A DNA stretch of 64,000 nucleotides from an uncultured Thermococci archaeon (lineage in GTDB: Archaea > CAYQAE01 > CAYVLA01), in NCBI GenBank assembly GCA_964549615.1, contig CAZJVP010000099.1, positions 64,001 through 128,000 on the forward strand, read 5' to 3'. This document shows, piece after piece, positions 15,738 to 53,534 of the stretch. The translations under genes were made by a program, and so were the position numbers. The notes beneath the pieces are model-generated. The model searched no databases and was not told where the DNA came from. It worked only from the letters and a program-made list of their open reading frames with translations. How positions within the stretch are numbered: position 1 is the stretch's first letter; every line of letters starts with the position of its first letter.

Positions 15738-17600
15738 TCACCCGTCGGATCGCCGCCCTGACGCCGCGCCATTGGCGATGTTCAGCGAGTACCAGATCTC
15801 CATGTTCACCAGGTCGGCCAAGAATGGGTCATTCTTCCGAACCAGAGCACGCACAGCTTCTGGGTTAAGGATACCGTCGCGCATCAGGTTCCCGTTCGAA
15901 ACCGCTGTCTCAGCAAAGCCTCTGAGCTCATTGGCGTACCACTCCTCGACAGGCAGGGAGAAGCCGATCTTGGTCCTTTGGGTGATCTCGGGTGGGAACC
16001 CCATTTTTTCTAGATAGCTCCTCAGCAAATCCTTGGTCCGCGGGTTGTGGAAGAGCTCGGCAGGCGAGCTGCTAAGCGCAAGTTCGACAACCGTCCTATC
16101 CATCAGCGGATACGTGGGCACCAAGGAGTTTGCCTGGTGATAGTACCAGAAGGCTCTGAAACCGCCCGGGAGGTTTGACCGAACGCCCAGCAACCGCCGG
16201 GAGTTGAAGGGCCCCAGCACCGCCGCCTCGAGGATCTCCTCGTTCAGAACGGACTTGATGCGACCCCATTCCTCGGCCGGAATGAAGGAATCAGAGAGAA
16301 CCTCGCGTGATCGTGCGAATGCCTTGGAAAGCTCGCGCAGCAGGAAGTAGCCGGGGACAATGCCCTCGATAAGAATCTTCCACAGCCTGATGATGTGCCC
16401 GAGCCTGCCCGGGCCGCGTGCGATATCCATAATCCCCTGGCCGAAGCGCCGCCGCAGCAATCGCTTGGATGATGCGCTGAGACAACCTAGGCACACCAAG
16501 GAGAAGATTGCGTCCGCCGCGGCCCAGTCCACCCACGATGGGTAACCCCCGAAGAGCTCATCGCCCCCGTCACCGCTGAATACGACCTCTGCCCCCTCGC
16601 TTGCAGCCAGGACTGCTGCGCAGTAGTATTGCACCCCCCCGCCCGGCGGTTCCTGTCCCACCATGATCGTCTCTTGCAGCGTTCGGCGGAAATCGTTCCA
16701 ATCTATCGTCCGGCTCCTGTGAGTTGAACCGATGTGTGCGCTTGCCCTCAGCGCGGATGCCCCCTCGTCCCAACCCTTCTTCGCAGCACCCACCGAGAGC
16801 GTCACAATCCGACTACTCAATTGCTGTCGTGCCAGTCCGGACAGCGTGCCACACACGGTCGAAGAGTCTATGCCGCCGCTAAGGTACGCAAAAGGGGGCG
16901 AATGAACGGCATGCATCCTAGCCTTCGTTGAATCCGCAATCGCCTGCCAGACCGCCTCCCAACTTAAACCCTCCTGTCTCCTCGATAGATAAGCTGAAGC
17001 GTCCCAGTACATGGACTCCTCGAACCCTTGTTGGTCTGCTGTGAGTATGTATCCTGCCCTCACCTTTTGCACGCCTTCAAAAATCGTCTTGGAGTCCGCC
17101 CTCCTGCCCCGAACCAGTATCTCGGCAATGCCTGTCCTGTCCAAATTCGGGCGGGGCCGCGTTCGAGCCAGGGCAGTGAGATCCGTCGAAAATAGAATCA
17201 CCCCCTCAACACAGCGGTAATACAGCGGCCGACTACCGAAGTGGTCTCTGACGAGATAGAGCTCTGATCCACCTGGGTCAAAGAGAACGATCGAAAACTC
17301 GCCGTTCAGCCTGGTGAAGAAGCTGGCGCCCTGTGAGGAAAAGCCTGCGGCGAGCGAGATCGCCTGGTTCTCCGTATCGACAGGGTAGATCCTGCCCATC
17401 AGGGCGACGATGGGCCCCTCCTTTTCATGGTGCCATTGCACAGGCTCAGTCGGTCTGTCGAAGGCCCTCAGCTCAAGACGATTGGAGGCGTAGACATGGT
17501 CCGGCCCAGATCGTTCGGAGTCGATGTAGGTCGAGGCCTCGTCGAGCAGCCTCGTTGGGCACCCCCCGCGCAAGACGTATGCCCCGACGAGTCTCGCCAC
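15738..17600 (-). CDS. Asparagine synthetase B-like amide synthetase 1 (no N-terminal Cys)
   Basis: LNGEFS, RDHFGSRPLYY, PP-loop LSGGIDSS, SGDGGDELFGGY, YPLMD, TKIGF. GTG start has a GAGGTG SD and a conserved TATA. Confidence 0.87.
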   Translation of the reverse strand: MARLVGAYVLRGGCPTRLLDEASTYIDSERSGPDHVYASNRLELRAFDRPTEPVQWHHEKEGPIVALMGRIYPVDTENQAISLAAGFSSQGASFFTRLNGEFSIVLFDPGGSELYLVRDHFGSRPLYYRCVEGVILFSTDLTALARTRPRPNLDRTGIAEILVRGRRADSKTIFEGVQKVRAGYILTADQQGFEESMYWDASAYLSRRQEGLSWEAVWQAIADSTKARMHAVHSPPFAYLSGGIDSSTVCGTLSGLARQQLSSRIVTLSVGAAKKGWDEGASALRASAHIGSTHRSRTIDWNDFRRTLQETIMVGQEPPGGGVQYYCAAVLAASEGAEVVFSGDGGDELFGGYPSWVDWAAADAIFSLVCLGCLSASSKRLLRRRFGQGIMDIARGPGRLGHIIRLWKILIEGIVPGYFLLRELSKAFARSREVLSDSFIPAEEWGRIKSVLNEEILEAAVLGPFNSRRLLGVRSNLPGGFRAFWYYHQANSLVPTYPLMDRTVVELALSSSPAELFHNPRTKDLLRSYLEKMGFPPEITQRTKIGFSLPVEEWYANELRGFAETAVSNGNLMRDGILNPEAVRALVRKNDPFLADLVNMEIWYSLNIANGAASGRRSDG

Positions 17601-17624
17601 GGCACCTCTTCTCTCAAGCATACG

Positions 17625-17636
17625 ATAATAAGATTT
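17625..17636 (-). promoter_or_regulatory. BRE/TATA element AAATCTTATTAT (identical at 43251-43262)
   Basis: Identical 12-mer 24-25 nt upstream of the GTG of both AsnB-like paralogues, while the spacer has diverged. Confidence 0.65.
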
Positions 17637-17713
17637 TCGGATCGATTCCCCGATTCTTCGAAAGGACAAACCGACGATAGATGCAAAACCCGCGGTGCCG
17701 CGGGGGCGTGTGG

Positions 17714-18480
17714 CTCATCTTCCTTAACACGAGCCGCCGTCTCCGAATCCCTGCCCGGCTACATCAGGATGTCAGGATGGGCTTCGCTCCCCTCGCTCGA
17801 CGCGACCATCTGGCGAAGCCGCGCCCCCTGCCTTATTAGGCTCCCTGCTTCTCGCCTCTCGCGGATTGAATGGTTCAAGAATTTCGATGGCGGGCGTGGA
17901 GGTCTCCAGTCCAAACCACGAGACTGCCCCTGGGCGAGGCTAGGGAGTCAGTCGTCACCGATCGAGCCCTGCCTTAGGAGATTGCCCAAATCGTCTCCAA
18001 ACAGGGACGCAACCGAGGCCGCCTCATCCTTCGCCAGGATGAGGCATTCTTTCGATGGAGGTTCGCTAGCGGAAGAAGACGCTATCCCTTCTGCCGCCTA
18101 CTGAAGGAGCGGCGGGCGGTAGGCTACGCGGTGATGAGGCTTCACCAGGGACGTGGCACGATCATCGACTCCGGCGGAGTTGATGAGAACTACACCAAGA
18201 TTCTTCTGGGGCCATGGCAAGCACGTTGAGGTTCGACATGCTCTCAATCTGGGATTTCTCGGTGGAAAGCTGGCTGAGGCAACAACTTGAATCACTGGGT
18301 TTCAAGCAAGACGCTTTGACGGCTGTGATTCAGAGGAGGACGTCAGGTCAGGCTACCTTGCCTCTTCTGGTGCGGCCGGTCAAGGAGAACTCTCAGGAGA
18401 GCGACTGGCACGTGGGCGGCCTGGACGTTCGCAGGATCGGTAGCTGGTTCATAAAAGGGGTTTGCTCGGATGCCGAGTAG
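17714..18480 (+). pseudogene. Degraded GNAT, paralogue of 43500-44600
   Basis: Aligns by eye to the C-terminal two-thirds of the intact copy (FLNTS, LPGY.RMGF, QDEAFFRWRFASG, LSIWDFSVES..CSDA). 5' end missing; 8-bp tandem duplication TCAGGATG at 17764-17779; further frameshifts. Confidence 0.85.
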
Positions 18481-18588
18481 CTGCAAAGCCTGACTGAGAT
18501 GTCCTTGCACCACCCGGCGGGCGCGGGACTCCCTTTGATAGCACCCGGGAAACGAAGCAATTCCGCCCGCGGGGGACTGGTCGCATCG

Positions 18589-19421
18589 GTGTCCGCCCGA
18601 CGGGAAGGAAATAGGGGACTTCGGGCCCTCCGCCTAGTGGCCTTATCGCCGATGCCTCTGTTGCTTCTCTACGCCCTGCCCTGGTCCTTTCGCCTCTGCT
18701 CAACTTGGATCGATGGAAAACCTGCGGTATGGGAGGTCCTAATTGAGCCGGGCACGACGATGGCACGTAGCAGCGACAGCATCCAAGGGGACTTCTCGGT
18801 CCAGATGAACACGACCGATTCCTACGGTATCTACCTGCGACAGGAGATCTGGATAAACGAGTCGGTGCGCCACTCGGTCCTCTTGGGTCTTGTGTTCAGG
18901 ATCGACGAGATCGACGACATCGACTCAAGCGGCAGCACAGCCTGACCGGGCTGGAGATAGGCCTGGAGGGAGGAGACATCGATGCGGATAGCCAGCCCGA
19001 GTATATGTATCACTACCTCTTCATCGATCGATGCGTAAGGGTCGAGGACTTCCCAGCCTGGCAGCGCAACACCACGCCCACGGATGCACCACACAAAATG
19101 GCCTTCCTTCACCATGTTGAGTCCATTGGCATCCGGAACTTTTTCCAAGGCAACATCTCGCAGCTCTTTCTCGAGAACCTGGGAGGCTTTCCGCTTGGAC
19201 CCATAGACCTCCGCGTCTGGGCGCTCAGGTGGGGAGACGGAATGCCTGATTCCGGCATAAAGGCGACCATCGACTCTATCAACATCTGGGTGCCCGAGAG
19301 GGTCGCCATGGCCATTCTGTCCCTGAGCCTCCTCTCAGGCATGCTGAGATCGTTGCTTGCCAGAACCGGTAAGGATAGGCAGATCGATCCGCCTTCAACC
19401 GATCGGCTGCCCAAAGAGTGA
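18589..19421 (+). pseudogene. Exported protein with VPE-TM C-terminus, copy 1 (frameshifted)
   Basis: ORFs 18499-18945 and 19005-19421 are the two halves of the 44765-45649 protein. A 1-nt deletion lies near 18933 (GGC AGC ACA GCC TGA versus GGC CAG CAC AGC CTC). Confidence 0.85.
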
Positions 19422-20090: not shown

Positions 20091-21245
20091 GTGGAGAGCT
20101 TGAGGACCGAGATCGTCCAAAGCGCCAGAGAACTCGCCGATATCGGGGTCGACTCCTTCGTGACAGATCCCATGCACACCTCATGGTACCTGATGGCGCA
20201 TGAACGATCGGGCGTCGGCAGGAGGGAACCAAGGCACATCGTTGTCCTCGATTCTTCGCGGCCCGTTGCATATGTGCCGTGCTACGTGCAGCATTCCGCA
20301 GTATACGATGATCTGGCAATCGTCCTTGCCACGCCCACGCTCCGAAGGGCAATCCGGTGGGCCGCCTTGATTGGTGCATTCCCAGGCCTGTCCCCAGCCC
20401 TTCTCTGCTCGTCCCCGGACAGCCTTTACACGACGCTGTCCATCAGCCCCGCCCTGGAGCGGTCCGAGGAGGCCAATGTGGTCAGGGCCGTGGTCGACGC
20501 CTTGTTGCAGGTGGCGAGGGACGAGGAGCTGGACGTTGTTGGTTTCATGAATCTTCCACGGAGGGAAAGCCTTCTCTGGCAGGCGCTGCCGTCCATGGGG
20601 TTCATCTACTCCAAGCGCGTACCCTCAGCGTACCTCCCCGTGAACTTTCGGACCTTTGAAGAGTACCTGAGGCTTGGAGCAAGAAAACGGCGGAAACAAT
20701 ACAAGATCGAGGTTAAAAGGGCTGCCCAGCAGGGCCTGATCATCCATGAAATCGAGGATTATTCGGGCCTTGGCGGACTGCTCTCGGATATCCTGGGCGA
20801 GACCTGGGGGGTGCGTGGTAAGACCTCGCCCTTCCCGCCCAGCTACTTTGAGTCGCTAGCCGAGCATACCAAAGGCAGGTCCTGCGTCATATCCGGATCG
20901 TTTCGCGGCGAGGTGGACGGATTCACCCTCTTGCTGTGGACCGCGGAGGAGATGTGCGCCTACCAGTACGGGGCAAGGAAGAAGGAGCGGGTTCGGCTCT
21001 CCAATCTATATTTCAACATCTGCTACAACGCCACGATTGCCAAGGCGATCTCCTTAGGAGTGAAATCGATCAGATTCGGGCCGGGCTCCCTTCACGTCAA
21101 GACCTCCAGGGGATGCCTATTGGAGGACTTAGGCATGTTCCTCAAGCCCATGAAGAGGATCCACCTACCTGCCTTCAAGGCTTTGATGCTGCGCAACAGG
21201 AGGCGAGGGAGGGCCGCGCAGGATGTCCGAGGGTTACCGGCCTAA
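20091..21245 (+). CDS. FemAB/BioF2-like tandem GNAT protein
   Basis: PVAYVPCY, YLPVNFRTFEEYL..RRKQYKIEVKR, LYFNICYNATIAKAISLG..FGPGSLHVKTSRG. Confidence 0.8.
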   Translation: MESLRTEIVQSARELADIGVDSFVTDPMHTSWYLMAHERSGVGRREPRHIVVLDSSRPVAYVPCYVQHSAVYDDLAIVLATPTLRRAIRWAALIGAFPGLSPALLCSSPDSLYTTLSISPALERSEEANVVRAVVDALLQVARDEELDVVGFMNLPRRESLLWQALPSMGFIYSKRVPSAYLPVNFRTFEEYLRLGARKRRKQYKIEVKRAAQQGLIIHEIEDYSGLGGLLSDILGETWGVRGKTSPFPPSYFESLAEHTKGRSCVISGSFRGEVDGFTLLLWTAEEMCAYQYGARKKERVRLSNLYFNICYNATIAKAISLGVKSIRFGPGSLHVKTSRGCLLEDLGMFLKPMKRIHLPAFKALMLRNRRRGRAAQDVRGLPA

Positions 21246-22390
21246 CCCGAACGCGGTGCGTAAACCTGCCCCACTTTTTCTAGATGCATGGCTAGGTCGG
21301 TGCTGCTCCGAAAGAAGCGCTCCTCGCGGCCAGACCCAAGCTGCCTCCTAGCGCGAAACACTCCCTCGACCAGCATGGACCTCGGCCCGCCCATGAAAAC
21401 CCTCGCCTTGACCCTCTGGCCAACCCCGGTTGAAAGGCGGACAAGGTAAGGGTGTGCGGTGAGGAAGTCGACGCGAGACGGCGGATGTGTTTCCCCAAAA
21501 AGTGCCTTGAGGGACTCCAGTATTACCAAGAGTCCCGGCGAGAAGGTCCCGTACTCGCAATCGTAAGACGTCTGAAGAAGATATGCCGTCTTGCCGTACC
21601 TGAGCAGCAGGGCGAATGCTATGGGTTGTTCGTCGAGGTTGAGGACGTGTAGATCCAGCCAGCCTTCATGACCCAGGAGGGCGAGCAGGTCCTCCCAAAA
21701 CCTCTCCCCCGTAAAAAGCTGCTGGCGCTTCCAACTACGCTCCGAGACCCGCCGGACAGCAGCCCACGCACTGCCCGCGGGGTCGAGCTTGCGGTATCTC
21801 TTGGTCAGCAACTCGCCAGTCTTCCTCAGCTTTTCGCTGGCTCTTCTCGCGTTCTTCCTGAGTTTTGGTCCTCTTTTCTGGTAGTAGGAATCCCACCCTC
21901 CTCGTATCTCGACGAGAGCATTCCGCCACTGGGGCGAGTATGAATACTCGATGCTCATCCCGCTATCTTGAGCCGCCGATTCCAAGAGCCTCAAGGACGG
22001 TGATGAGCCGTTCAGCGCAAAGAACTCTGCCACGGGCACGCCCGACTCGTCCCTGATCGCCTCAAGCACGGTGCGGAAAACCTCCGCCGTCCCGCCGGGC
22101 ACCAGGAAGTCGACCTCAAGCCATGGCCTAGCCACGGCGAACCTGGCCCTTCTGAGCCTGAAGATTCCTCCAGTCTCCGCGATCTGGAGAGGCGCCAGGC
22201 CCACAATGCCGGCCCTGTCCCGGAGCACTATGATGAAAGGGCGGCTAGCCGTTTCGCGGTGCTTCATCCATAGTTCGCAGAAGCTTGGGTGGACGAACGG
22301 GGCGGGCCGGCCGCACTGCTCCATCAGATCGAGCCAGGCACTTCTGATCTCCGCCGCGCCCTCCCAAGTCTTGATTACTTCAACCCTCAA
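21242..22390 (-). CDS. CelD/BcsL-like (Acetyltransf_6) GNAT
   Basis: PFVHPSFCELW, VGLAPL, GWDSYYQKRGPKLRKNARR, TSYDCEYGTFSPGLLV, VDFL. Confidence 0.85.
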   Translation of the reverse strand: MRVEVIKTWEGAAEIRSAWLDLMEQCGRPAPFVHPSFCELWMKHRETASRPFIIVLRDRAGIVGLAPLQIAETGGIFRLRRARFAVARPWLEVDFLVPGGTAEVFRTVLEAIRDESGVPVAEFFALNGSSPSLRLLESAAQDSGMSIEYSYSPQWRNALVEIRGGWDSYYQKRGPKLRKNARRASEKLRKTGELLTKRYRKLDPAGSAWAAVRRVSERSWKRQQLFTGERFWEDLLALLGHEGWLDLHVLNLDEQPIAFALLLRYGKTAYLLQTSYDCEYGTFSPGLLVILESLKALFGETHPPSRVDFLTAHPYLVRLSTGVGQRVKARVFMGGPRSMLVEGVFRARRQLGSGREERFFRSSTDLAMHLEKVGQVYAPRSG

Positions 22391-23588
22391 GACCTTCGCC
22401 TGCCGCTTCCCTGTTTTCTTCTTCTTGCTTCCCGAGGACCTTCCACTCGTCGCCGTCGGGACGTCCCCTGGCCCTCCCTTGGACGCAGCCCAAACCTCGT
22501 TCTCGGTTGCGAAGCAGTCTCCGCCGCCTCAAGCCGTCACTGAGACGAAAAGCCACCGAAAGTAGCCTGCCCCTTGGGTTTTTGGGAAAGCATCGGACTC
22601 TGAGTCTTGATTGTGTAGAGTCCGCAAGTCGTTCCAAGAAGGGATAGGTTGTAAGGAAATCCATCGTCGTCTCCAGCGACTTGTGTTGGAAACAGTCGCG
22701 CATCGCCTTGGTGGTCAGGTAGGTGCCCGGCGATAAGTGGGCGTAGTCCGAGTCGTAGGCGGTCTGCATCCAGTATATCGTTTTGTGGTGTCGAAGTAGG
22801 ACGACGAAGGCCGCGGGACGATCGTCGATGCGGAGGATATAGAGGCTCAACAAACCCTTTTCGCTCATCAATTCAATGAACTCCCTCCAGAAGCCGCCCC
22901 TGAGATAGCTCGATGGATCCTTCCAACTCTTGGCAACAATGCATTCTAGTGTCGATAGGCTTCCTTCCAACCCGTCGGGCCCGCCCGACTTCTCGATCTC
23001 CGCGCTGCCGCAACGACCCATCTTCCTGTCCACCCTCCTCATAACGTACCTCGTCCTGGCAGACCTCCTGGCAAGGTAATCCTCCCATGTTCCATCCAGA
23101 CTTACGAGTGAATTGGTCCATCTCGGGGGTCGAAGATACCCCAGAGTATATCCCTTTCTTGCGCCGAACACCTCGATCGCGGGCAGGGAGGGGGACGAAC
23201 AAGGAATTGCGAAGAGATCAAGCATGTCAAAGTCGCAATTGACCGTCGCCGCGGCGAGAACATCTGGAACCGCTCCGGCTCCGGGATGCATTAGCAGGAA
23301 ATCCGAGTCAAGCCAGGAGACCGCGACCATGAACCTGAGCCTTTTGATGGTGAGGCCCGACTTCCTGGTGGGCGCGATGCATAGAGGGGCCAGCGCCTGG
23401 GGCCTCCCCTGGTCGTCCTTGAGCATGACAACGCGAGGGATGGCTGAAGGGACTCGGTGCTTCAGCCAGAGCTTGCAGAAGTCTGGATCCGCGAAGGGCG
23501 TCGCGTTCGGAGCGTTGCGACAGATATCTAGCCATTCGCCCCTGAGGGGCTCGATCTCGCTCCACCCGTCCGCCAAGACTGCCCGCAA
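22380..23588 (-). CDS. CelD/BcsL-like (Acetyltransf_6) GNAT, tandem paralogue
   Basis: TPFADPDFCKLW, ALAPL, TWEDYLARRS, TAYDSDYAHLSPGTYL. TTG 23588 chosen from paralogue alignment and TATA spacing. Confidence 0.85.
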   Translation of the reverse strand: MRAVLADGWSEIEPLRGEWLDICRNAPNATPFADPDFCKLWLKHRVPSAIPRVVMLKDDQGRPQALAPLCIAPTRKSGLTIKRLRFMVAVSWLDSDFLLMHPGAGAVPDVLAAATVNCDFDMLDLFAIPCSSPSLPAIEVFGARKGYTLGYLRPPRWTNSLVSLDGTWEDYLARRSARTRYVMRRVDRKMGRCGSAEIEKSGGPDGLEGSLSTLECIVAKSWKDPSSYLRGGFWREFIELMSEKGLLSLYILRIDDRPAAFVVLLRHHKTIYWMQTAYDSDYAHLSPGTYLTTKAMRDCFQHKSLETTMDFLTTYPFLERLADSTQSRLRVRCFPKNPRGRLLSVAFRLSDGLRRRRLLRNRERGLGCVQGRARGRPDGDEWKVLGKQEEENREAAGEGLEG

Positions 23589-23711
23589 GACAGCAAAAAG
23601 TAGCCTCAGAAGGCTTAAAAGCCAAGTGGCCGGGCCGAATACTCGGGTTTCAACGTTTCCCATCGGTTCTGTCGGCGGCCGGGGCAAAAGAGAGGTGTTT
23701 CTGACAGCTTG

Positions 23712-24281: not shown

Positions 24282-24624
24282 TTCCGGTGCGGAAATGCCG
24301 AGTAAAAGGTTTGTGGCGGATGATCGGATCCGAGCATGTCTTGATCCGCTATTTTGGAATCAGGGACGGATGCCGCATAGCGGGGCGGGCGAAAGTGAAG
24401 ATCTTGCGCACTTGGCAGGATTATCCGAAGCCACCGTGACCGGCGGAAAAGGCCGCCTGTGGAAACAGTTTGCTCCCTGCGTGTGAAGAACCACCGCCAC
24501 CAACCAAGACACCACGAGGATGCCATGAAGGGAACAACTCCGGCCGCGGCTCACCGGCTGCGAGCCACTTGCAAGTATTGCGACAAATGACAAAGATGGA
24601 CCGCCCAGCCCGGTTCCACCCCCG

Positions 24625-24886: not shown

Positions 24887-24943
24887 TTGCAAGGATCAGG
24901 CGCGCTCAAAGCCAACTCGACGTGGACCCGATGACCGGCTAGG

Positions 24944-36551: not shown

Positions 36552-36561
36552 CTCCTGTCCC

Positions 36562-41361: not shown

Positions 41362-43227
41362 TCAGCCCGAAAGCGGCCCGCCGGGCTTGACGCGATCATC
41401 GGCGAAGTTCAGCGAGTACCAAATCTCCATGTTCACCAGATCGGTCAGATGGGAGTCCTTCTTTCTGAAGAGGGCCCGCACGGCCTCGGGCCTGAGAATG
41501 CCATCGCGCATGAGCTTGCCGTTCGAGACGAGCGTTTCAGCGAATTCGCGCAGCTCGTTGGCGTACCAGCTCGCCACGGGAAGGAAGAACCCGATCTTCG
41601 TCCTCCTCGTGATCTCGGGCGGGAAACCCTTCTCCTCAAGGTAGGTCCTCAGCAGATCTTTGGTTCGCGCAGTACGGAAGATCTCTGCAGGCGAACTGGC
41701 AAGGACCGGCTCGAGCACCGACCTGTCCATCAGGGGGTATGTGGGCACAAGGGAGCTTGCCTGGTGGTAGTGCCATGCGAGTGCGAAGACGCTCGGGAGG
41801 CTTGACCGAACGCCGATCAGCCGTCGGCAGTTGAACGGGCCCAGGATAGCGGCCTCCAAGATCTCGTTGCGAAGAGTGGAATCCACACGCCGCCAGTCTT
41901 CGGCCGAAAGGAAGGAATCGGAGAAGACCCGTCGCGTCCGGCCGAGTGCTATGGAAAGCTCCCGCAGCAGGAAGCGGCCCGGGATGAAGCCCTCGATGAA
42001 GATCTTCGCCAGCCGACTGATGTGTCGCGATCTCTCCGGGCCGCGGGCGACGCCCACGACATGCTGCCAAACGTTCAGCCGCAGAAATCGCTTCGAGGAT
42101 GGGCCGAGATGGCCCAGACGCACAAGCGAGAATACCGCGTCGGCCGCGGCCCAGTCCACCCAGGACGGATAGCCCCCGAAGAGTTCGTCGCCCCCATCGC
42201 CGCAGAACACGACCCTCGCCCCCTCGCCTGCGGCCAAGGCGGCAGCGCAGTATCCTTCCCCGCCCGGGTCACCGCCTTCCTGTGCGACCCGGACCATCTC
42301 CCCAAGCATCCTGCGCAGGTCGTTCCAGTCGATCGACCGGCTCTTGTGGGTTGACCCGATGTGCTCGCTTGCCTTGAGGGCGAAGGGTCTCTCGTCCCAG
42401 CCCCTCTTCGCACCGCCCACGGAGAGCGTCACGATCGGGCAGTTCCATTGCTCTCGTGCAAGTCTGGAGAGCGTGGCACAGACGGTCGAGGTGTCTATTC
42501 CGCCGCTGAGGTAGGCGTATGGAGGCGGTTGCACAGCCTGCATCCTAACCTTGGTCGAGTGGGCGATTGCCTGCCAAATCGTTTCCCACCTCAAACCCTC
42601 CTGCCTCTTCGAAAGATGGACCGCCGCATCCCAGTAGATGGATTGCTCGAAAGCTTGTTGGTCTGCTCTGAGCATGGACCCCGGCCCGACCTTTCGGATC
42701 CCCTCATACATCGTCCTAGAGCCATCCGTCCTGCCCTGGATCAGCACCTCGGCCATGCCCATCCTGTCAAGGGGCGGGCGGGGACCAGCTCGAGCCAAGG
42801 CAGCGAGATCCGTCGAAAACACGATCGCACCCTCAACAGGCCGGTAGTAGAGAGGCCGACTCCCGAAGTGGTCCGTAACGAGATACAGTTCCGATCTGGC
42901 GGGGTCAAAGAGGACGATCGAGAACTCACCGTTCAGCCCCCCGAAGAGGGCGGCGCCTTGCGATGAGAAGCCGCTGGCCAACCCGATGGCCTGATTCCCC
43001 GAGTCGACTGGGTAGATCCTCCCCATCAACGCGACGAGGGGACCTTCCCCTTCATGATGCCATTGCACAGGCTCCCCGGGTCGGTTGAAGGCCCGCAGCT
43101 CAAGGCGATCGGAGACGTATGAATGGTCGGGGCCGGATTGCCCAATGCACATGTAGGTCGACGCCTGGTCGAGAAGTGGGCCGTCGATTCGCCCATGAAA
43201 GGCGTATACGCCGACCAGTCTCGCCAC
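41362..43227 (-). CDS. AsnB-like amide synthetase 2 (no N-terminal Cys)
   Basis: Close paralogue of 15738-17600: LSGGIDTS, CGDGGDELFGGY, TKIGF. Confidence 0.87.
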   Translation of the reverse strand: MARLVGVYAFHGRIDGPLLDQASTYMCIGQSGPDHSYVSDRLELRAFNRPGEPVQWHHEGEGPLVALMGRIYPVDSGNQAIGLASGFSSQGAALFGGLNGEFSIVLFDPARSELYLVTDHFGSRPLYYRPVEGAIVFSTDLAALARAGPRPPLDRMGMAEVLIQGRTDGSRTMYEGIRKVGPGSMLRADQQAFEQSIYWDAAVHLSKRQEGLRWETIWQAIAHSTKVRMQAVQPPPYAYLSGGIDTSTVCATLSRLAREQWNCPIVTLSVGGAKRGWDERPFALKASEHIGSTHKSRSIDWNDLRRMLGEMVRVAQEGGDPGGEGYCAAALAAGEGARVVFCGDGGDELFGGYPSWVDWAAADAVFSLVRLGHLGPSSKRFLRLNVWQHVVGVARGPERSRHISRLAKIFIEGFIPGRFLLRELSIALGRTRRVFSDSFLSAEDWRRVDSTLRNEILEAAILGPFNCRRLIGVRSSLPSVFALAWHYHQASSLVPTYPLMDRSVLEPVLASSPAEIFRTARTKDLLRTYLEEKGFPPEITRRTKIGFFLPVASWYANELREFAETLVSNGKLMRDGILRPEAVRALFRKKDSHLTDLVNMEIWYSLNFADDRVKPGGPLSG

Positions 43228-43499
43228 GTTGCCCGGGTAGGATGGGCCCCATAATAAGATTTGCCGTGCATCCGTGCATCCGTGCATTGAACCTTGACGC
43301 TCTTCGCTGTCTGGTCTCGGGACGAGCCGGCAAAGCGGTTCGTCGAAGCCCACATCGGTGAGTCGCGTCACATCGTGCTCCCGCTGCAGCGTAGCCACCT
43401 CAGGCCATGAAAGGGGTCGGGGGCGACTTTTGGGTAAACCGTCCGCGGCGCGAAGCATTATATGGAGCTTTGTGGCTGCTTGTTCGAGGAAGACGGAAG

Positions 43500-44600
43500 G
43501 TGTCTGGCCAGGAGTACTGTGCAGTTCCCTACAGCCCGGACTTGCTGCCAGACATCGCGCAGCTGATGGTCTATCTGTGGGGCGGCGATCCGGAGGCCAA
43601 CACGTCCTACTTCCGGTGGAAATACGAGCGTAACCCGCATTCAGACGAGCCCCTTGCCGTGGTAGGCCTGAGGGGGAGCAAAGTTGTGGGGTTCCGCGGG
43701 TTCTTCGCCACCAAGTGGACCGCGGGACGGGACCAGACGGTGAGGGTGCTCTGCCCTAGCGATACATGCGTCCACCCGGACCACCGCAGGAGAGGGCTTT
43801 CCGTATTGATGGGCAGGGCGGCGATGCGACTGTATGAGGGCAGATACCCCATATTCCTCAACACGAGCTGCAGCCACCAATCCCTTCCCGGCTACGTTAG
43901 GATGGGCTTCCTTCCTCTCGCTCAACGGAACTACCTCGCGAAGGTGCGTCTTTCAGCGTTTTTCTCATCATTGCCGGTCTTGAGCCCTGTCAGTCGGATC
44001 CTTAGAGGGCAGGGGCCGTCCCAGGCCCAAGGGCTAAGACTGCCGCTTGGTGGTGCCTTGGAGTTCCTGGTCACAGATAGAGTTTTGCCCGAAGAGATGG
44101 CCGGAGTCGTCGCCAAGCGGGGACGAAACCCCGCCCGCCTCACCCTCTGCCAGGATGAGGCGTATTTCCGGTGGAGATTCGCCAGCGGGAGAAGGCGCTA
44201 CTCCTTCTGCTACCTTATGGAGGGGCAGAAGGTTGCGGGCTACGCAGCTCTAAGGCTCTTCCGGAGGGGACGCGCCACGATCATCGACTACGGAGGAGTA
44301 GATGAGAACTGCACAAAGACGCTTCTGGGTGCCGCCGTTGCAACGTTGAGGCTCGACGTGCTCTCCATCTGGGACTTCTCCGTGGAAAGTTCGCTCAGGC
44401 AGTACCTCAGCTCGCTAGGATTTCGGCGGGACTCCCTGACAGCCTTCATAGAGAAGAGATTGTGGGGAGAGGTTTCCCTCCCTCTTCTGGTGCGTCCCGT
44501 CGCGGAGAGCTTCCGAGAGGACGACTGGTACATCGGGGGGCTGGACGTTCGCAGGATCGAGAGCTGGCTCATAAGGGAGATTTGCTCGGATGCCGCGTGA
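43500..44600 (+). CDS. GNAT-family protein (tandem GNAT)
   Basis: YFRWKYERNP, VVGFRG, DTCVHPDHRRRGL, SLPGYVRMG, AYFRWRF. Confidence 0.83.
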   Translation: MSGQEYCAVPYSPDLLPDIAQLMVYLWGGDPEANTSYFRWKYERNPHSDEPLAVVGLRGSKVVGFRGFFATKWTAGRDQTVRVLCPSDTCVHPDHRRRGLSVLMGRAAMRLYEGRYPIFLNTSCSHQSLPGYVRMGFLPLAQRNYLAKVRLSAFFSSLPVLSPVSRILRGQGPSQAQGLRLPLGGALEFLVTDRVLPEEMAGVVAKRGRNPARLTLCQDEAYFRWRFASGRRRYSFCYLMEGQKVAGYAALRLFRRGRATIIDYGGVDENCTKTLLGAAVATLRLDVLSIWDFSVESSLRQYLSSLGFRRDSLTAFIEKRLWGEVSLPLLVRPVAESFREDDWYIGGLDVRRIESWLIREICSDAA

Positions 44601-44764
44601 CCTGCGACTGAGTGCCAAGAGAATTGTGCCACGCGCCGCATCGGGCCGCTCTCTATGAACGAATAGGATGAGTGGGACGGCAGAAGGAAAGCAATTGACA
44701 GAAGTGCCCCGTTTCCCATAAGAATCCCCACAGCTAGTGCACTCAGACGAAGGCGGGTGTATCG

Positions 44765-45649: not shown

Positions 45650-45973
45650 GGCGGGAACCGTCCGAGGTGATCAGAAAGAGGCCGTCCCGCAGTTGGCGAC
45701 GCGAAGCACGCACGGCGCGCTTCGGATCGCTTCGATCGAGAGCGATGCAACCCTTTTCCAACCCGCTTCGAAGTGGATCCGAGTCAAAGCGGGGCGGGAG
45801 TTGTTGAGGGCGGTACCTGGCTATCTCCTGGCGTACGGGCGGCCTGCGTCTGGCTCTCTCCGGGAGCGACGTCCGGTCCGGGCAAGCCGGATAATTCCCG
45901 GTCCGGAGAGTCCCGGAACAACTTTTCGCGCCGGACCGTCCCAGCCGTCCGGGCATCCAAGGAGGACCGATCG

Positions 45974-47614: not shown

Positions 47615-47875
47615 GCAGACGTAGTTCGGCAGGAGTTCGAGAGATCGTCAACAGCGCGCAGCAGCTTTCGAAGACCCGGATTGACTGCTTGATGAGCGAC
47701 CCCATGCACACCATGGTGCCTCGGGGTAGACCAGTTGGGGAACCGTCCATGCGCGCTTGTGGGTAAAGCCGCTCGCAGATCCAACCTTGCCAGCTAGGCT
47801 TTCACCGCTAATCTTTTTCTTCCCAGCGATGGGTCCTGAAGTGAACGAGCGGAGACAGGAAGCCGGGGCGAAAAC

Positions 47876-49162
47876 TTGAAAATCGCCTTCGTTGCACCTT
47901 TCGGACTCAACGTTCTCCCGCCGTACCAGCTATCCGGAGGAATATGGATTTACGAGGTGGCGCGCAGGCTCGGCACCCGGCACGATGTGTGGGTGTACTC
48001 CTGGCGTAACCCCCTCCAAGCCGAACCGCGCAGAGATGACGTTGTACACTATAGGTTCCTCGACTCCGTGCTCGCTAGGCCCACCCGTAAGGTTTTGCAC
48101 CCGCTCATGGGGCTGAGGGGTCCGCGAACACCGTATTTTGCATCGGCGCTCGCCAACCCGGGCTATAGCCTCGCAGTCGTACGAGACATCCTTCGCCAGC
48201 ATTTCGACGCAATCCTAGCGGATGAAGTCTTCACACTTCCCGTCCTCTTGGGCAGTTTTTCCCGTCGGCCTCGCGTGGCTTTCCGCATGCGCGCCGAGTG
48301 GCTCGCTCAGTTCGACCGCTCCTTCGTCGAGCGGCGGATCAGGTCAAGCGACCTCGTTCTCGGCTGCAGCAGATACGTCACCGAGGCCGTGAGGCGACGA
48401 TTCCCAGAATACGCGGACCGATGCCTGACGGTGTACGAGGGCGTAGACCAGGGACGGTTCGCCCCGCTCGGAGCCCGGAATGGTAGAGATCACGATCCAA
48501 CAACCTTGCTCTTCGTGGGAAGGGTTTCGCCCGAGAAGGGGCTTCACACTTTGCTAGATGCCTTCTACAAGGTCCTCAAGGAGTGCCCGGACTGCAAGTT
48601 GCAGGTCGTGGGACAATACACGTCCGCCCCACTTGAGATGATCATCTTGCCGAGCCATGACCCTGGCGTTCGTTCATTGGCTCGCTTCTACCGACCTGAA
48701 TCCCAGACAGCCTACCGCGACTACCTCTTGGTTCAAGCCCAAGCCCTCGGGATTCGTGACCGGGTCAGCTTCTCAGGGCCAAGGCCGTACGAGGACATGC
48801 CGAGCTTCTATCGATGTGCGGACGTACTCGTCAACCCATCGTTCGTCGAAACATTCGGGAGGTCCCTGATCGAAGGGATGGCCTGCGGGCTTCCGGTTGT
48901 CGCGACGAGGGTAGGGGGCATGCCGGAGATCGTCGATGAGGGGCGGAATGGCCTCATGGTCGATCCAGGCGATTCGGAGGCTCTATCCCAGGCCATTCTG
49001 AAGCTGGTCTTGAATCCGAGGCAGGCGCGGTCCATGGGTCTAGCAGGCCGCAAGAAGGCCATCGATCGCTTTGCGTGGGACGTGATTGTGCCCAGACTCC
49101 TGGAGATCATAGAAGATCCTCGTCCCAGGACTGCTCGCTCACTGGTCTCGCCAAAGAAGTGA
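47876..49162 (+). CDS. GT4 glycosyltransferase
   Basis: LFVGRVSPEKG, ADVLVNPS..ETFGRSLIEGMACGLPVVATRVGG. Confidence 0.93.
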   Translation: MKIAFVAPFGLNVLPPYQLSGGIWIYEVARRLGTRHDVWVYSWRNPLQAEPRRDDVVHYRFLDSVLARPTRKVLHPLMGLRGPRTPYFASALANPGYSLAVVRDILRQHFDAILADEVFTLPVLLGSFSRRPRVAFRMRAEWLAQFDRSFVERRIRSSDLVLGCSRYVTEAVRRRFPEYADRCLTVYEGVDQGRFAPLGARNGRDHDPTTLLFVGRVSPEKGLHTLLDAFYKVLKECPDCKLQVVGQYTSAPLEMIILPSHDPGVRSLARFYRPESQTAYRDYLLVQAQALGIRDRVSFSGPRPYEDMPSFYRCADVLVNPSFVETFGRSLIEGMACGLPVVATRVGGMPEIVDEGRNGLMVDPGDSEALSQAILKLVLNPRQARSMGLAGRKKAIDRFAWDVIVPRLLEIIEDPRPRTARSLVSPKK

Positions 49163-49399
49163 TCTGAGGGCTACTGCCCACCGATGGGTCCCCGACTGGC
49201 TCTTTAAGGGTCGGGCTGCCGGTCTAGCCGGCGAGCCTCGGATTCTGCCTCCCCTTCCCGGAGGCCGCCAAGCTGCGACGGACCGCTCTGTCTTGCGACA
49301 AATCCCAAAGAAATAGCGAAATTGCGGTGAATATTTTAAGAAAGTTTTGCTCGATCTCCTCATGAGCGGCGCAAGTCTGCGTCCCGAGGTGTAGAATCA

Positions 49400-50557
49400 A
49401 TGAAGCAGATAGGAAATCTCACAATCGCGCTCCTCATCGTGCAATCCATCACTGCAGCGGTGCTCAGCGTTGACGCCGTGTCCCCGGGTCTTGACGATTT
49501 GGAGGTTTGGGTGGCCCGTGAGGCCATGAATCTGGTCGAACTGTCCCATCTTTGTGACGACCTTGCCGCGCAGATCTCTGGGGGCCGAACGGATGGTACG
49601 AACCTCGCCGACTTGCTTGCCAGCCTGTCCGACCGGCTTGAGGCAGTCAGGACCGCGCTGGATGGCCTCGAGGCGCAGATACGATCGATGGAGATGCCCG
49701 AATCGGATGTAACCGCAGGACTGCTCAAGGACATCGAACTTCTCAGGTCACAGAACGCCGCCCTTCGTGAGAAACTCCAGATCCTGAGGAAAGCAGCCTA
49801 CGCGGGGCCGCCCCTAGCTGAAGGCGGGAGTACGGACTCTAGGCTCGTGACAAGCGCTTTGGGCAAAGCAGCATACGCCATGCTCGTCGTCTCCCAGGAG
49901 ATGCGGGGAAGCTTTTTGGACATCTCGAGCATCATCGGAGCAGGCATCGGGACGCTCGCAAGGCTCAGCGATGCCACGGGTGGCCGGTTGCCAGTGGGCG
50001 CCACGCCCGGGCTCGTGGTCACCGTCTTCGCCGTCCTCCTTGCCTTCGCGCTGGTGAGCATGGCCATTCAGACCTACTACAGGGAAGCATTCGATCATAG
50101 GGCAGACGACACCCGCATCCCGGGCCTGCTAGTAGCGTCTGCCGTGCCCTGGGGTGATGTCTCCTCACCGACAGGTGGGCCATTCTTGGACATTTCTGCC
50201 AAAGGCGAGGCGACGGGCCGCGCTGGAAAGCTTTCGGACGCAGATGAGGAGTACGCCATCATGCTTCTGAAGCTCGGCTACAGGGAGGAGGCCCTCCGGG
50301 TCGTATCCCCCGGAACGACCACTCGGCATTCGCCCCGCGGCCAAGCACCACCCCGGGATGGGGGTCAGACCGATGGATCGCTCGTCGGGCGCGCAGGGCC
50401 CGGCCCCCTGGGCAGGCAAACGCGGCGCGATCCTGCGAGGCATTTCGGACAGGCAAGGAGGCTGTACAAGAAGGCCTTCAACTCGCTGATAATAGCGGGC
50501 AGAAGGAGCAGGCGGTACAAGATGGGGCCCATCCGACGGGCCGGGAAGAAACCCTAG
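49400..50557 (+). CDS. Hypothetical membrane protein with coiled-coil
   Basis: Hydrophobic N-terminus, heptad-rich region, internal TM (LVVTVFAVLLAFALVSMAI); GAGGTG SD and AT-rich promoter upstream. Confidence 0.6.
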   Translation: MKQIGNLTIALLIVQSITAAVLSVDAVSPGLDDLEVWVAREAMNLVELSHLCDDLAAQISGGRTDGTNLADLLASLSDRLEAVRTALDGLEAQIRSMEMPESDVTAGLLKDIELLRSQNAALREKLQILRKAAYAGPPLAEGGSTDSRLVTSALGKAAYAMLVVSQEMRGSFLDISSIIGAGIGTLARLSDATGGRLPVGATPGLVVTVFAVLLAFALVSMAIQTYYREAFDHRADDTRIPGLLVASAVPWGDVSSPTGGPFLDISAKGEATGRAGKLSDADEEYAIMLLKLGYREEALRVVSPGTTTRHSPRGQAPPRDGGQTDGSLVGRAGPGPLGRQTRRDPARHFGQARRLYKKAFNSLIIAGRRSRRYKMGPIRRAGKKP

Positions 50558-50811
50558 CGTTATTCCCCTAGCGGTCGAAGGGGAGATTCCCGTTGAGCGC
50601 TTGTACCCGTACCCGGCCGAGCACGCGTCGAAGACTTGCCCTGCCCGTCCTAGATGCGGTTCGTGGCCATGGATGCCAAGATCGATGAAGAACCGGGCGT
50701 GGTCCGCAGCCGGGTTGGGCCTCGGGTAGGTGCGGATCATGGGTGAGGAGAAGGAGGTCTTGCCGTTTGATCGGGACGCGACTAAGCTCAGGAAGATCTC
50801 AGGGGACGGGC

Positions 50812-51594
50812 ATGGCCGGAGAACCTTGTGAACTGGAGCGGCACAGGCAGACGAAGGAGACCTTCAGGCACCGATACGAGGTTGCATACGCGTCGGGATC
50901 GACGTACGCGGGGTTGGCACAAAGATGGCGCGAGGTCGTCGAGTTCCCGCTGGTATCGTCCGCGACCCCCCCGGGGCTTGTCCTTGACGCGGGTTGTGGC
51001 GACTGCACGTTGACCAGGTTCCTCTGCACCCCCTCAAGACGGATCATCGGACTCGACTTCTCATGCCATGCCCTGCAGGCCGCAAGGAAGTGGTTTCACG
51101 GCGCCAGCGATGAGACGATTCCGGAGCTGATGAGAGGGGATATCGATCGACTACCCTTCAGAGATGGTTGTTTTGACGGAACGGTCTGCGTCGGAACCCT
51201 GGAGTACTTTTCTGACCTGCGAGCGGTCCTCGCTGAGCTGGGAAGGGTCTCCAGAAGGGGCGCACGCTTGGTATTCACCGTGAGAAACAGGAGACGCGTG
51301 ATAGGGGCAACCCGCCACGGAGTTGAGAGTCCAGGGAACGTCTCCCCTTTGTTTGCCTTCCACGATGTAAAACAGGTGAAAAAGGCCGTGGAAGAGGCAG
51401 GAGGGCGGAATCCGAGGATCTTGCCGTACTTCGCCATCTCTCCGGCAGGCTTGGCAGGGCTCCTCGCCGCTTTGCCCGGCCCCCTGCAAAGAGCGGGATT
51501 CCGGGTCTTGTGCCTGCTGGAGAGGATGGCGACAGCTACCCGTGCCGGGTTGCTCATCTCGAGGGTGCTCCTCGTCTCCTACACCGTGACCTGA
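50812..51594 (+). CDS. Class I SAM-dependent methyltransferase
   Basis: VLDAGCGD, GLDFS, GDIDRLPFRDGCFD, LAELGRV. Confidence 0.88.
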   Translation: MAGEPCELERHRQTKETFRHRYEVAYASGSTYAGLAQRWREVVEFPLVSSATPPGLVLDAGCGDCTLTRFLCTPSRRIIGLDFSCHALQAARKWFHGASDETIPELMRGDIDRLPFRDGCFDGTVCVGTLEYFSDLRAVLAELGRVSRRGARLVFTVRNRRRVIGATRHGVESPGNVSPLFAFHDVKQVKKAVEEAGGRNPRILPYFAISPAGLAGLLAALPGPLQRAGFRVLCLLERMATATRAGLLISRVLLVSYTVT

Positions 51595-51668
51595 CCCGCA
51601 TCGTCCGCCTGGAACACCCTCGCCGTAGAAGACCGATCCCCGACGAACGCGTAGCCCATCCCGACCGA

Positions 51669-53534
51669 TCACTTTGGCACCGGTCGACCGGGCCTATCGC
51701 CGAACGTGACGCGGAGCCAGATCTCCAGATTTACGAGCGTCCCGATGAGCTCCCAGTTCCGAGGGATGTCGGAGAAAAGCGAAAGCACGCCGTCCCGATC
51801 CAGAAGCCCAGATGCCATCAGCCTGCCTCCAAGCACCATCTCCTCGGCGAAAGCACGGAGCCCGTTTGCATACCATCGCATTAGAGGTGCGTAGAAACCG
51901 CTCTTGCCCCGCACCACCAGCCGCATAGAAAAGCCCTCTTTTTCCATCAATCTCCTGAGGAAATCCTTCGTACGTGGCCTCTCGTAGAATGCGGCTGGCT
52001 CCCTCTCTAGAACCGGCTCGCACACCCGTCTATCCATGAAGGGGTAGGTTGGGACGACGGACGCAGACCGATGCCAGTTCCACAGCGCCCTGAACCTAGA
52101 TGGGTCCGACTTGGTGAAGCTCGTGAACCTGTAGGCGTTGAAAGGGCCTAGCCTGTACGCCCTGTCAAGCTCGCTTCGAAGGACGGCCATGGCTTTCGCC
52201 CATGCGGAATCTGGCACTAGGCTCGTCGATATCACTGCGCGCGCCTTCCTAGAGGAGCGGTCGAGTCTCTTCCGGGGCAGGAAGGTCGGAAGAACTCCCT
52301 GGATGAGAATCCTGAGCAGGTGCCGAAAGGCGGCCCGTCGGGGGGTTGTCGAGGGATCGAGATACCTTGCCAAGCAGTGCCTAAGCAGCCTGAGGCCCGA
52401 GGCAGTGACCCGCCCCTGGTATACGAGCGAATATAGCGTATCGGCCGCCAACGCTTCCAAGAGCGACGGGCGGCCCCCAAAGGACCCGTCTGCCCCATCC
52501 CCGCTGAAGACGTGCTTCGTCCCCTGCTCGGAGGCATGCAAGGCAGCGCAGTAGTAGGGCAGCCCTCCGTCTCCTTTTGCGCTTTCCTCGGCCACCCTTA
52601 TGCACTTCTCAAGAAGCCTCGGAAACGCCTCCAACGAGAGCGGCCGACCCGCCTTGTGGACTGAGCCGATTCGCTCGCTCGCAAGACGAGCGTATGGTTC
52701 CTCATCCCAACCTCTCTCGTCGATGCCCAAGGACAGGGTCACGAGCCGGGGTTCGGTCTCGGTCTCGCGGGCCAGCTCTGATACCAGACAGCTCACCAGA
52801 CTCGAGTCGGTCCCCCCGCTGAGGTAGGAGTAGAACGGTGGCTCAAGACCCGTCATCCTTTGAGCTACAGACTCTCGGAGACGTTGCCGGAACTCGTCTT
52901 GCGATAGGGCTTCTGTTCTTCTGCGCCGAAGTACCTTCTCTGCGTCCCAGTACACGCACTCCGTGAGCCCCTGCTCGTCGATCTGGATGTAGTGACCTGG
53001 CCTCGCCTTCCTCACAGGCCTCAGCAGTGTCCGAGACGAGCCAATCTTGCCATCGACCAGGAGTTCAAGGAGGCCAGTCTCGTCGTAGTCCGGCTCGGTG
53101 TCAAGCTGCGCCAAAGACCGGAAGGAAGAGGAGAACACCAGAGCGCTGTTGACCATCCTGTAGTACAGCGGCCGACCGCCGAAGTGATCTCTAGCCAAGA
53201 TAGCGCGTGTCTGTCCAGGATGGTATATGACGGCCAGGAATTCGCCGTTGAGACCCTGGAGGACGCTAGGACCGATCTGGCCGTAGAGCCTGCCAATCCC
53301 TGCGGCACTTCCTCCCTCCAGAGGGGGAAACAGCCTACCCGACAGGGCAACGAACACGTCTGAAGTCGATAACCATTCGAGCCTCTCCGCTAGGCTTTCA
53401 TAACCTCGGATCTCGAAAGGGCCCGAGCAGTAGACATGATCCGGCTCGCCTAGATCGATGTTTCCTGCGACCGCATCGATCAGGGATGTCGGGCTGCCTT
53501 CGCCCCTCGAGTAGCCGCCCACCAGGGTGCTCAT
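51669..53534 (-). CDS. AsnB-like amide synthetase 3 (Ser at nucleophile position)
   Basis: MSTLVGGY start, LNGEF, ARDHFGGRPLYY, LSGGTDSS, SGDGADGSFGG, YPFMD, KSGF. Confidence 0.85.
   Translation of the reverse strand: MSTLVGGYSRGEGSPTSLIDAVAGNIDLGEPDHVYCSGPFEIRGYESLAERLEWLSTSDVFVALSGRLFPPLEGGSAAGIGRLYGQIGPSVLQGLNGEFLAVIYHPGQTRAILARDHFGGRPLYYRMVNSALVFSSSFRSLAQLDTEPDYDETGLLELLVDGKIGSSRTLLRPVRKARPGHYIQIDEQGLTECVYWDAEKVLRRRRTEALSQDEFRQRLRESVAQRMTGLEPPFYSYLSGGTDSSLVSCLVSELARETETEPRLVTLSLGIDERGWDEEPYARLASERIGSVHKAGRPLSLEAFPRLLEKCIRVAEESAKGDGGLPYYCAALHASEQGTKHVFSGDGADGSFGGRPSLLEALAADTLYSLVYQGRVTASGLRLLRHCLARYLDPSTTPRRAAFRHLLRILIQGVLPTFLPRKRLDRSSRKARAVISTSLVPDSAWAKAMAVLRSELDRAYRLGPFNAYRFTSFTKSDPSRFRALWNWHRSASVVPTYPFMDRRVCEPVLEREPAAFYERPRTKDFLRRLMEKEGFSMRLVVRGKSGFYAPLMRWYANGLRAFAEEMVLGGRLMASGLLDRDGVLSLFSDIPRNWELIGTLVNLEIWLRVTFGDRPGRPVPK

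Follow-up and report, generated by a model that had tools for sequence, protein, structure and literature searches.

A 64,000-nucleotide (nt) stretch of DNA from an uncultured Thermococci archaeon (contig CAZJVP010000099.1, positions 64,001 to 128,000), referred to here as the window, contains three genes encoding proteins related to the asparagine synthetase AsnB. The genome is archaeal: a TATA-binding protein was present and matched archaeal controls only. An earlier note, made from the letters of this DNA, had claimed that all three enzymes lack the cysteine nucleophile of the glutaminase domain and had proposed that they are ATP-dependent ligases attaching an amine or amino acid to sugar carboxylates. 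The genes, termed paralogs A, B and C, and the blocks resembling a transcription factor B recognition element (BRE) and TATA box upstream of them are as follows.

15738..17600, minus strand: paralog A, AsnB-like, 620 amino acids, GTG start, M-ARLVG; predicted dead glutaminase domain and intact PP-loop synthetase domain
17625..17636, minus strand: BRE/TATA-like block AAATCTTATTAT, ending 24 nt before the GTG of A; putative promoter
41362..43227, minus strand: paralog B, AsnB-like, 621 amino acids, GTG start, M-ARLVG; 69% identical to A
43251..43262, minus strand: BRE/TATA-like block AAATCTTATTAT, 23 nt before the GTG of B
51669..53534, minus strand: paralog C, AsnB-like, 621 amino acids, ATG start, M-STLVG; 39 to 40% identical to A and B and 47% to P0006, a protein encoded by a metagenome contig
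53558..53569, minus strand: BRE/TATA-like block AAAGCTTTATCC, 23 nt before the ATG of C

The N-termini given in the note (M-ARLVG, M-ARLVG and M-STLVG) were found in A, B and C, as were the intact synthetase motifs SGG.D[ST]S and GDG.D. The PP-loop read SGGIDSS in A, SGGIDTS in B and SGGTDSS in C, and the second synthetase motif was GDGGDE in A and B and GDGADG in C. Matches to the Asn_synthase domain (PF00733) scored 155.2, 145.0 and 124.5 bits for A, B and C, respectively (gathering cut-off, 21), and the match to GATase_7 was partial in all three, being restricted to the C-terminal half of the model. With the NCBIfam models, the three proteins scored 173.7, 144.0 and 140.1 bits for TIGR01536, asparagine synthase (glutamine-hydrolyzing) (curated cut-off, 267.1), 154.4, 139.6 and 124.2 bits for TIGR03108, the WbpS-type eps_aminotran_1 family (816.9), 72 to 84 bits for the lasso-peptide cyclase model NF033535 (525) and 68 to 78 bits for the macrolactam cyclase model NF033561 (300). 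TIGR03108 was the first or second best NCBIfam match for each protein.

The translation starts had been held to be supported by TATA spacing, and this was borne out. In each of A, B and C, and likewise in the orthologous gene for P0006 on a 111-kb metagenome contig (L011), the BRE/TATA-like block ended 23 to 25 nt short of the start codon, and the block was kept between L011 and the window though the remaining flank could not be aligned. A/T-rich blocks were also present ~30 to 35 nt ahead of the starts of several other window genes. The block spacing would fit leaderless or near-leaderless archaeal mRNAs. Met1 of A, B and C aligned with the Met of MCGIxG in Cys-bearing relatives, with residues 3 to 9 on the first β-strand, and an AlphaFold2 model likewise had strand E3-9 as its first β-strand. 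Nucleotide similarity between A and B (74% over 1842 nt) stopped one base upstream of the GTG. The database gene call for A (P0004, 620 amino acids) had a start identical to the GTG used here, and that for B (P0005, 554 amino acids) had a later start at an internal ATG (MGRIYP). An alternative start placing a Cys first was looked for in all three genes, and the only candidate was an internal ATG-TGC in B (Met26-Cys27, positions 43152 to 43147). This candidate was rejected, as Cys27 lies ~7 residues before the 'GPD' motif and is not aligned to Cys1, no Shine-Dalgarno (SD)-like sequence is present upstream, A and C have no counterpart and the first β-strand would be deleted. The starts given in the note thus stand.

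The glutaminase site was compared residue by residue, using E. coli AsnB numbering taken from a profile alignment to the structure 1ct9 and, as the reference for conservation, 124 relatives starting with MC or VC.

Cys1: 100% in the 124 Cys-bearing relatives; Ala, Ala, Ser and Gly in A, B, C and P0006
R49: 99% in these relatives; kept in A and B only
N74: 98%; Met, Met, Ser and Asn in A, B, C and P0006
E76: 99%; Arg in A, B, C and P0006
D98: 100%; no Asp in A, B, C or P0006, at a point where a 9- to 10-residue deletion in their clade makes the local alignment uncertain

The absence of the Cys nucleophile was, therefore, confirmed and was accompanied by loss of the N74, E76 and D98 equivalents, supporting the prediction of a glutaminase inactivated at several residues and not through the Cys alone. 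Judged against a competent class II amidotransferase of the N-terminal nucleophile (Ntn) type, Cys1 and the glutamine/oxyanion residues were missing, apart from R49 in A and B, and the Ntn αββα fold was present. Ser1 of C was considered as an Ntn nucleophile and rejected, as this position is occupied by Ala in A and B and by Gly in P0006 and the remaining glutamine site is gone. In an alignment of 150 rows, the Cys1 column contained Cys in 129 of the 146 aligned rows, another residue in 17 (including A, B and C) and a gap in four. Two of the 17 non-Cys rows looked N-terminally truncated, and 11 had Asp at the N74 position.

Close relatives of these proteins were rare. A word-indexed search over 5.8 billion proteins, in which 8000 candidates were scored (1965 with E ≤ 1e-10), detected only P0006 (40%) as close among those candidates, apart from the proteins of the window itself. 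When 1.84 billion representatives were scanned in full with HMMER, the scores were 1080 bits for P0006, 992 for the product of B and 310 for P0124, a fragment of 342 amino acids; the next tier consisted of P0125 to P0127 (222 to 258 bits), and all others scored ≤198 bits. The 17 pattern matches among 185,579 species-representative genomes included no relative, and none of the three other genomes of the order had a match at E ≤ 1e-20. A metagenome scan yielded 12 loci with L011 as the sole clade member; nine further loci were read, eight of which encode M/V-CGI starts and one of which (L022) is ambiguous, the fragments L017 and L019 being left out. A search of the ESM Atlas returned generic Asn-synthase clusters only.

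Trees were built on synthetase-domain columns only, excluding the Cys region, with FastTree (150 rows) and a quick IQ-TREE run (43 rows); authentic WbpS, WbqG, PdmN, FdmV, β-lactam synthetase and lasso-cyclase sequences were not among the rows. A plus B and C plus P0006 formed one clade (support, 99 to 100) with a stem length of 1.45, and the only members found outside the window were P0006 and the fragment P0124. The sister group of the window clade was P0125 to P0127 (support, 98 to 99), and all seven proteins are Cys-less. As A, B and C lie in one wholly Cys-less clade, the trees point to a single old loss of the Cys rather than three, and they place the separation of the C type from the A/B type before the split from the organism encoding P0006. 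Across the trees, at least 4 to 7 state changes of the Cys are required; by this count, Cys loss recurs in the radiation of WbpS/eps_aminotran_1-like proteins. TIGR03108 was the top NCBIfam match for four of five tested Cys-bearing relatives (571 to 613 bits; the fifth, P0128, scored 364), scored 216 to 353 bits with P0125 to P0127 and fell to 116 to 154 bits with the window clade. These scores and the tree placement identify the clade, at the sequence level, as a branch of the WbpS-like radiation that has diverged strongly.

Other Asn_synthase-domain proteins were seen in this genome. One (C78, 45045 to 46334; L004, 1285 to 2574) is a synthetase-only protein of 429 amino acids encoded between GT2 and GT4 glycosyltransferase genes, and another (C104; L005, 1168 to 2598) has 476 amino acids and an N-terminal region ...MPWICAAAS, with no clear M-C start. 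No canonical MCGI-type AsnB was noticed in this genome.

In the synthetase half, the PP-loop SGGxDS, the G-D-G-x-D block and the equivalents of K429 and K449 were invariant in A, B and C, and the K449-equivalent column was 100% conserved. Replacements found only in this clade affected positions that are 99 to 100% conserved in relatives, namely the Asp of 'DRxSMA' (to Trp) and the equivalents of E398 (to Val) and R400 (to Thr); in C and P0006, the equivalents of E352 and Y357 were also changed (GDGADGSFGGR). These changes would fit a remodelled acyl or amine pocket with an altered substrate. The AlphaFold2 model of A had a predicted local distance difference test score (pLDDT) of 93.1 and a predicted TM-score of 0.93, with pLDDT values of 78 to 97 in the N-domain, and showed the two-domain AsnB fold. 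Foldseek matched the whole protein to TsnB9, AsnB, β-lactam synthetase, CarA and human ASNS (E, 1e-22 to 1e-18) and the N-domain to GlmS and PurF. On this model, the N-terminal Ntn-glutaminase domain is retained as a fold and is predicted to be catalytically dead.

A and B lie within a segmental duplication (15770 to 19319 versus 41397 to 45523) comprising the AsnB-like gene, a GNAT gene of 397 amino acids and a gene of unknown family encoding 236 amino acids. The neighbouring genes in the two copies are as follows.

17705..18474, plus strand: GNAT pseudogene remnant, copy of the 397-amino-acid GNAT beside B; first 144 amino acids missing, in-frame stops and a frameshift
18736..19316, plus strand: frameshifted copy of the 236-amino-acid gene located at 44939 to 45649
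43407..44600, plus strand: intact two-domain GNAT, 397 amino acids, divergent neighbour of B

In the duplicate containing A, the GNAT and 236-amino-acid genes are pseudogenes while A is intact. The ratio of nonsynonymous to synonymous substitutions (dN/dS; Nei-Gojobori method) between A and B was 0.22 for the whole gene, 0.27 for the N-domain and 0.19 for the synthetase domain, values that are rough given a dS of ~1 (about 0.96); the comparison of C with the L011 gene was saturated. These ratios support purifying selection on A and B. The note had named a dN/dS near 1 as evidence that would count against its proposal, and the value of 0.22 for A and B is not near 1. Because dN/dS was low and the co-duplicated neighbours had decayed while A remained intact, decay of the genes was rejected.

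The sequence of the region identifies the setting of the genes as a large archaeal glycan-biosynthesis island. The window contains genes for GT2 and GT4 enzymes, three PMT_2 (GT-C) proteins, a UDP-GlcNAc 2-epimerase, a polysaccharide deacetylase, three FemAB/Acetyltransf_6 proteins, several GNATs, three PaaK-like adenylating enzymes and an ATP-binding cassette (ABC) importer, together with UbiA, geranylgeranyl-reductase-like, B12-radical-SAM, methyltransferase, RedH/PigC-like and PEP-utiliser-domain genes and a DUF11 surface protein. The joint presence of FemAB-like, deacetylase and glycosyltransferase genes, which marks an eps_aminotran_1-type setting, was found in the island, with two groups located as follows.

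10818..13149: UDP-GlcNAc 2-epimerase and polysaccharide deacetylase; best NCBIfam match of the deacetylase XrtA-system, far under cut-off
20091..23687: three FemAB/Acetyltransf_6 (VimA/CelD-like) genes

The 20 kb upstream of the window contained FemAB-like, radical SAM, DUF354, epimerase, PIG-L and GT2 genes and four GT4 genes. A UDP-sugar dehydrogenase, an NTP-transferase and a PF00953 initiating transferase were located at ~10 to 16 kb of the same contig; the dehydrogenase implies that uronic acids would be available, its link to A, B and C being indirect. STT3/AglB and two archaeosortase homologues (Exosortase_EpsH) were encoded on other contigs, with homologues on C88 and C51, the one on C88 lying ~3 kb from a UDP-sugar dehydrogenase. 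The L011 locus encoding P0006 shared epimerase, PIG-L, GT2 and GT4 gene families with the island, and a GNAT-GNAT-GT2 run had 39 to 59% protein identity between L011 and the left end of the window (1 to 3460). In L011, the P0006 gene was directly beside the GNAT pair, and ATP-sulfurylase and APS-kinase genes for synthesis of 3′-phosphoadenosine-5′-phosphosulfate (PAPS) were also present. The island stretch shared with L011 consists of window positions 1 to 3460 and positions 44001 to 64000 of the same contig (L026).

Surface glycans of archaea and bacteria commonly contain uronic acids substituted with amides. We consider it probable, at a rough probability of 0.6, that A, B and C use ATP, but not glutamine, to form amides on a carboxylate of a glycan. 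The C-terminal PP-loop domain would most likely adenylate a carboxylate with ATP, and the acyl-AMP would be resolved to an amide by a nitrogen nucleophile not derived from glutamine hydrolysis. Because of the surrounding glycan island, the carboxylate would most likely belong to a surface-glycan sugar linked to a nucleotide or a lipid, with a uronic acid as the probable form. The genes have lost the glutamine site and kept the ATP site and lysine equivalents, they are under purifying selection and the fold and glycan context are as described above; the catalysis itself and the identities of the acyl substrate and the amine would be deduced from these features. An organic amine or amino acid is put forward tentatively as the nitrogen donor, being regarded as somewhat more likely than free ammonia.

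Several known systems bear on this proposal. According to a recent preprint on type II polyketide pathways (bioRxiv 10.1101/2025.10.30.685158), homologues with Cys at the N-terminus (FdmV) are associated with glutamine-derived amidation and those with Ser or Ala (PdmN and others) with amino-acid ligation, PdmN itself having an N-terminal Ser. A non-Cys N-terminus on an AsnB scaffold is common to A, B and C and PdmN-type ligases, as the latter are described there, whereas the PdmN types are reported to act on aromatic polyketide carboxylates in actinomycetes; by analogy, this precedent supports a link between a non-Cys N-terminus and ligase chemistry. β-Lactam and carbapenam synthetases and lasso cyclases are also Cys-less AsnB homologues that combine carboxylate adenylation with a non-glutamine nitrogen but differ in having an intramolecular nucleophile and another genomic context. 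The structural matches included β-lactam synthetase 1mbz (E, 9e-20) and CarA 1q15 (E, 4.5e-19), and β-lactam synthetase 1jgt had weak sequence similarity to the window proteins (E, 3.8e-8). Among solved structures, the best match in both sequence (E, 8e-17) and fold (E, 1e-22) was the hydroxyamidotransferase TsnB9 (7ylz), which acts in trichostatin biosynthesis and differs in starting with MCGVAG, the Cys nucleophile being kept. The two domains of E. coli AsnB (1ct9) are folded alike (Foldseek E, 3e-21; TMt, 0.74), and its PP-loop, K429 and K449 have equivalents that are kept in A, B and C. The latter differ from E. coli AsnB and human ASNS (6gq3) in lacking the glutamine site, in a low identity (16 to 17%), in replacement of the E398 and R400 equivalents and in a helical insert that lengthens the synthetase domain by ~70 residues.

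The bacterial WbpS, WbqG and PGN_1234 proteins (eps_aminotran_1) are described as converting uronic acids to uronamides, and AsnB-like genes as co-occurring with VimA (a FemAB-like aminoacyl transferase) and VimE (a deacetylase) in PEP-CTERM-type loci (PMC7468200). A, B and C resemble these proteins in superfamily, length class and location in glycan loci with FemAB/VimA-like and polysaccharide-deacetylase genes. They differ in their TIGR03108 scores (124 to 154 bits versus 816.9), archaeal host and clade-specific pocket changes and, in relation to TIGR03108-type relatives, in the absence of Cys1 and of the N74, E76 and D98 equivalents, the N-terminus of WbpS itself lying outside this comparison. 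As for archaea, threonine amides of mannuronic acids are reported from Methanococcus N-glycans (PMC11407970), and a 2010 review listed the threonine-adding enzyme as unidentified (PMC2952790). The parallel that the note drew with these amides is sound as to their occurrence, and the link to A, B and C is one of analogy. In the literature searches, no publication connecting AsnB homologues with glycans of archaea came up, and nothing specific on Cys-less AsnB in polysaccharide work. The name aglU has reportedly been given to a gene for the Methanococcus threonine step, but the searches yielded no relevant paper on it. The new elements here are, thus, the presence of Cys-less AsnB-superfamily ligase-like proteins in an archaeal glycan island, their triplication and their strong divergence, Cys-less ligases themselves being already known.

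A number of points weigh against amide formation on a glycan carboxylate. A, B and C scored far under every curated NCBIfam cut-off, so that transfer of function from these families is weak. No UDP-sugar dehydrogenase was present in the 64-kb window, the nearest being ~52 kb upstream on the same contig, and A, B and C are in no tight operon with any single sugar-modifying gene, so that a glycan substrate rests on island membership. Loss of the 'DRxSMA' Asp and of the E398 and R400 equivalents could equally mean lost catalysis. The roughness of the dN/dS values and the uncertain alignment near D98 count on the same side, and the support as a whole is drawn from sequence, predicted fold and gene context. 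Overall, the ligase proposal of the note gained from the dead glutaminase, the intact ATP half, the evidence of selection, the glycan island and the PdmN precedent; its uronic-acid substrate and organic-amine donor were not established.

A variant of the proposed amide formation is that the proteins are WbpS-like uronamide synthetases using free NH3 or NH4+, with the dead N-domain being merely structural, which would contradict the 'other amine' of the note. In the E. coli AsnB structure 1ct9, Cys1 is missing, the chain aligning from residue 2, and the protein is reported to be the C1A mutant. AsnB mutants of the C1A type keep ammonia-dependent synthetase activity. The lineage is, furthermore, an offshoot of the eps_aminotran_1/WbpS-like radiation, and plain uronamides are the described products of WbpS and PGN_1234 (PMC7468200). 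However, three diverged paralogs (39 to 69% identity) and a remodelled pocket exceed the needs of an unchanged NH3 reaction, and characterised non-Cys homologues are ligases or cyclases; ammonia is regarded as a somewhat less likely donor than an organic amine or amino acid.

More doubtful is amidation or cyclisation of a peptide, lipid or small-molecule carboxylate, as carried out by lasso cyclases, β-lactam synthetase or PdmN. Matches to the lasso-cyclase and macrolactam-cyclase models (68 to 84 bits) would point in this direction but were far under the cut-offs (525 and 300 bits) and weaker than those to the AsnB and eps_aminotran_1 models. β-Lactam synthetase and CarA were among the structural matches, and the island has B12-radical-SAM, RedH/PigC-like, PEP-utiliser-domain and three PaaK-like genes; against this, no precursor-peptide gene was noticed in the island, where no systematic search for one was made, and the orthologue P0006 is encoded among GT2, GT4, GNAT and PAPS-synthesis genes. 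There is a slim chance that both halves are inactive and that the proteins are scaffolds or regulators in glycan machinery. The replacement of synthetase residues that are 99 to 100% conserved in relatives (Asp to Trp, Glu to Val and Arg to Thr) and the altered E352 and Y357 equivalents of C and P0006 would be in keeping with such pseudoenzymes, whereas the PP-loop, G-D-G-x-D block and both lysine equivalents are invariant and the synthetase domain is the more constrained half (dN/dS, 0.19). Continued glutamine dependence through another true start, Ser1 of C or a separate glutaminase partner is very improbable: Met26-Cys27 of B, a Ser exposed in C by Met removal and a weak GATase1_like protein at 58549 to 59766 (27.5 bits; cut-off, 27) speak for it, but Cys27 is off the Cys1 column with no SD-like sequence upstream and no equivalent in A or C, the N74, E76 and D98 equivalents are lost in all window copies, the nucleophile position is Ala in A and B and Gly in P0006 and the promoter-like block fits the upstream starts.

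A narrower version of amide formation on a glycan carboxylate, in which the three paralogs are glutamine-independent uronate-amine ligases of differing specificity, each adding its own amine or amino acid, as an amide, to the uronic acids of an archaeal surface glycan, is somewhat unlikely. If true, Cys-less AsnB homologues would supply the enzyme class that has long been missing for uronic acids amidated with amino acids, among them ManNAcA6Thr of Methanococcus N-glycans and those of many bacterial O-antigens. The label 'asparagine synthase (glutamine-hydrolysing)', as in the JGI names on relatives, is almost certainly wrong for A, B and C and would mislead metabolic reconstructions. As AsnB scaffolds with a predicted dead glutaminase that have been triplicated and kept under selection within a glycan island of an archaeon, A, B and C offer a tangible target for inexpensive assays.

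Several island functions occurred in threes (PaaK-like, FemAB and PMT_2). Three diverged PaaK/F390-synthetase-like genes, at 560 to 1858 (plus strand), 5544 to 6824 (minus strand) and 7895 to 9205 (plus strand), surround an NMT1-type ABC importer (3723 to 7561), and the PMT_2 GT-C genes are located at 9343 to 10821, 29816 to 31456 and 45773 to 47614. The surface protein (54307 to 56943, plus strand; 878 amino acids) has DUF11/DUF7507 repeats and a C-terminus with PVFP followed by a hydrophobic stretch and then basic residues; this C-terminus resembles an archaeosortase-type sorting signal, and no CTERM model was matched.

Many toxin-antitoxin-type modules, at 24944 to 25369, 38067 to 39398, 39802 to 40988, 56916 to 58276 and 61549 to 63471, consisted of PIN-domain genes and of two gene pairs that resemble nucleotidyltransferase/HEPN modules, these two pairs being named from sequence without a Pfam scan. 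The scattered modules would fit an accessory region of mobile appearance, which the three other genomes of the order do not have. A short open reading frame (24470 to 24934, plus strand) and the N-terminal part of the GATase1_like protein (58549 to 59766, plus strand; 405 amino acids) were 100% identical over 49 residues, suggesting a recent partial duplication or a repeat boundary.

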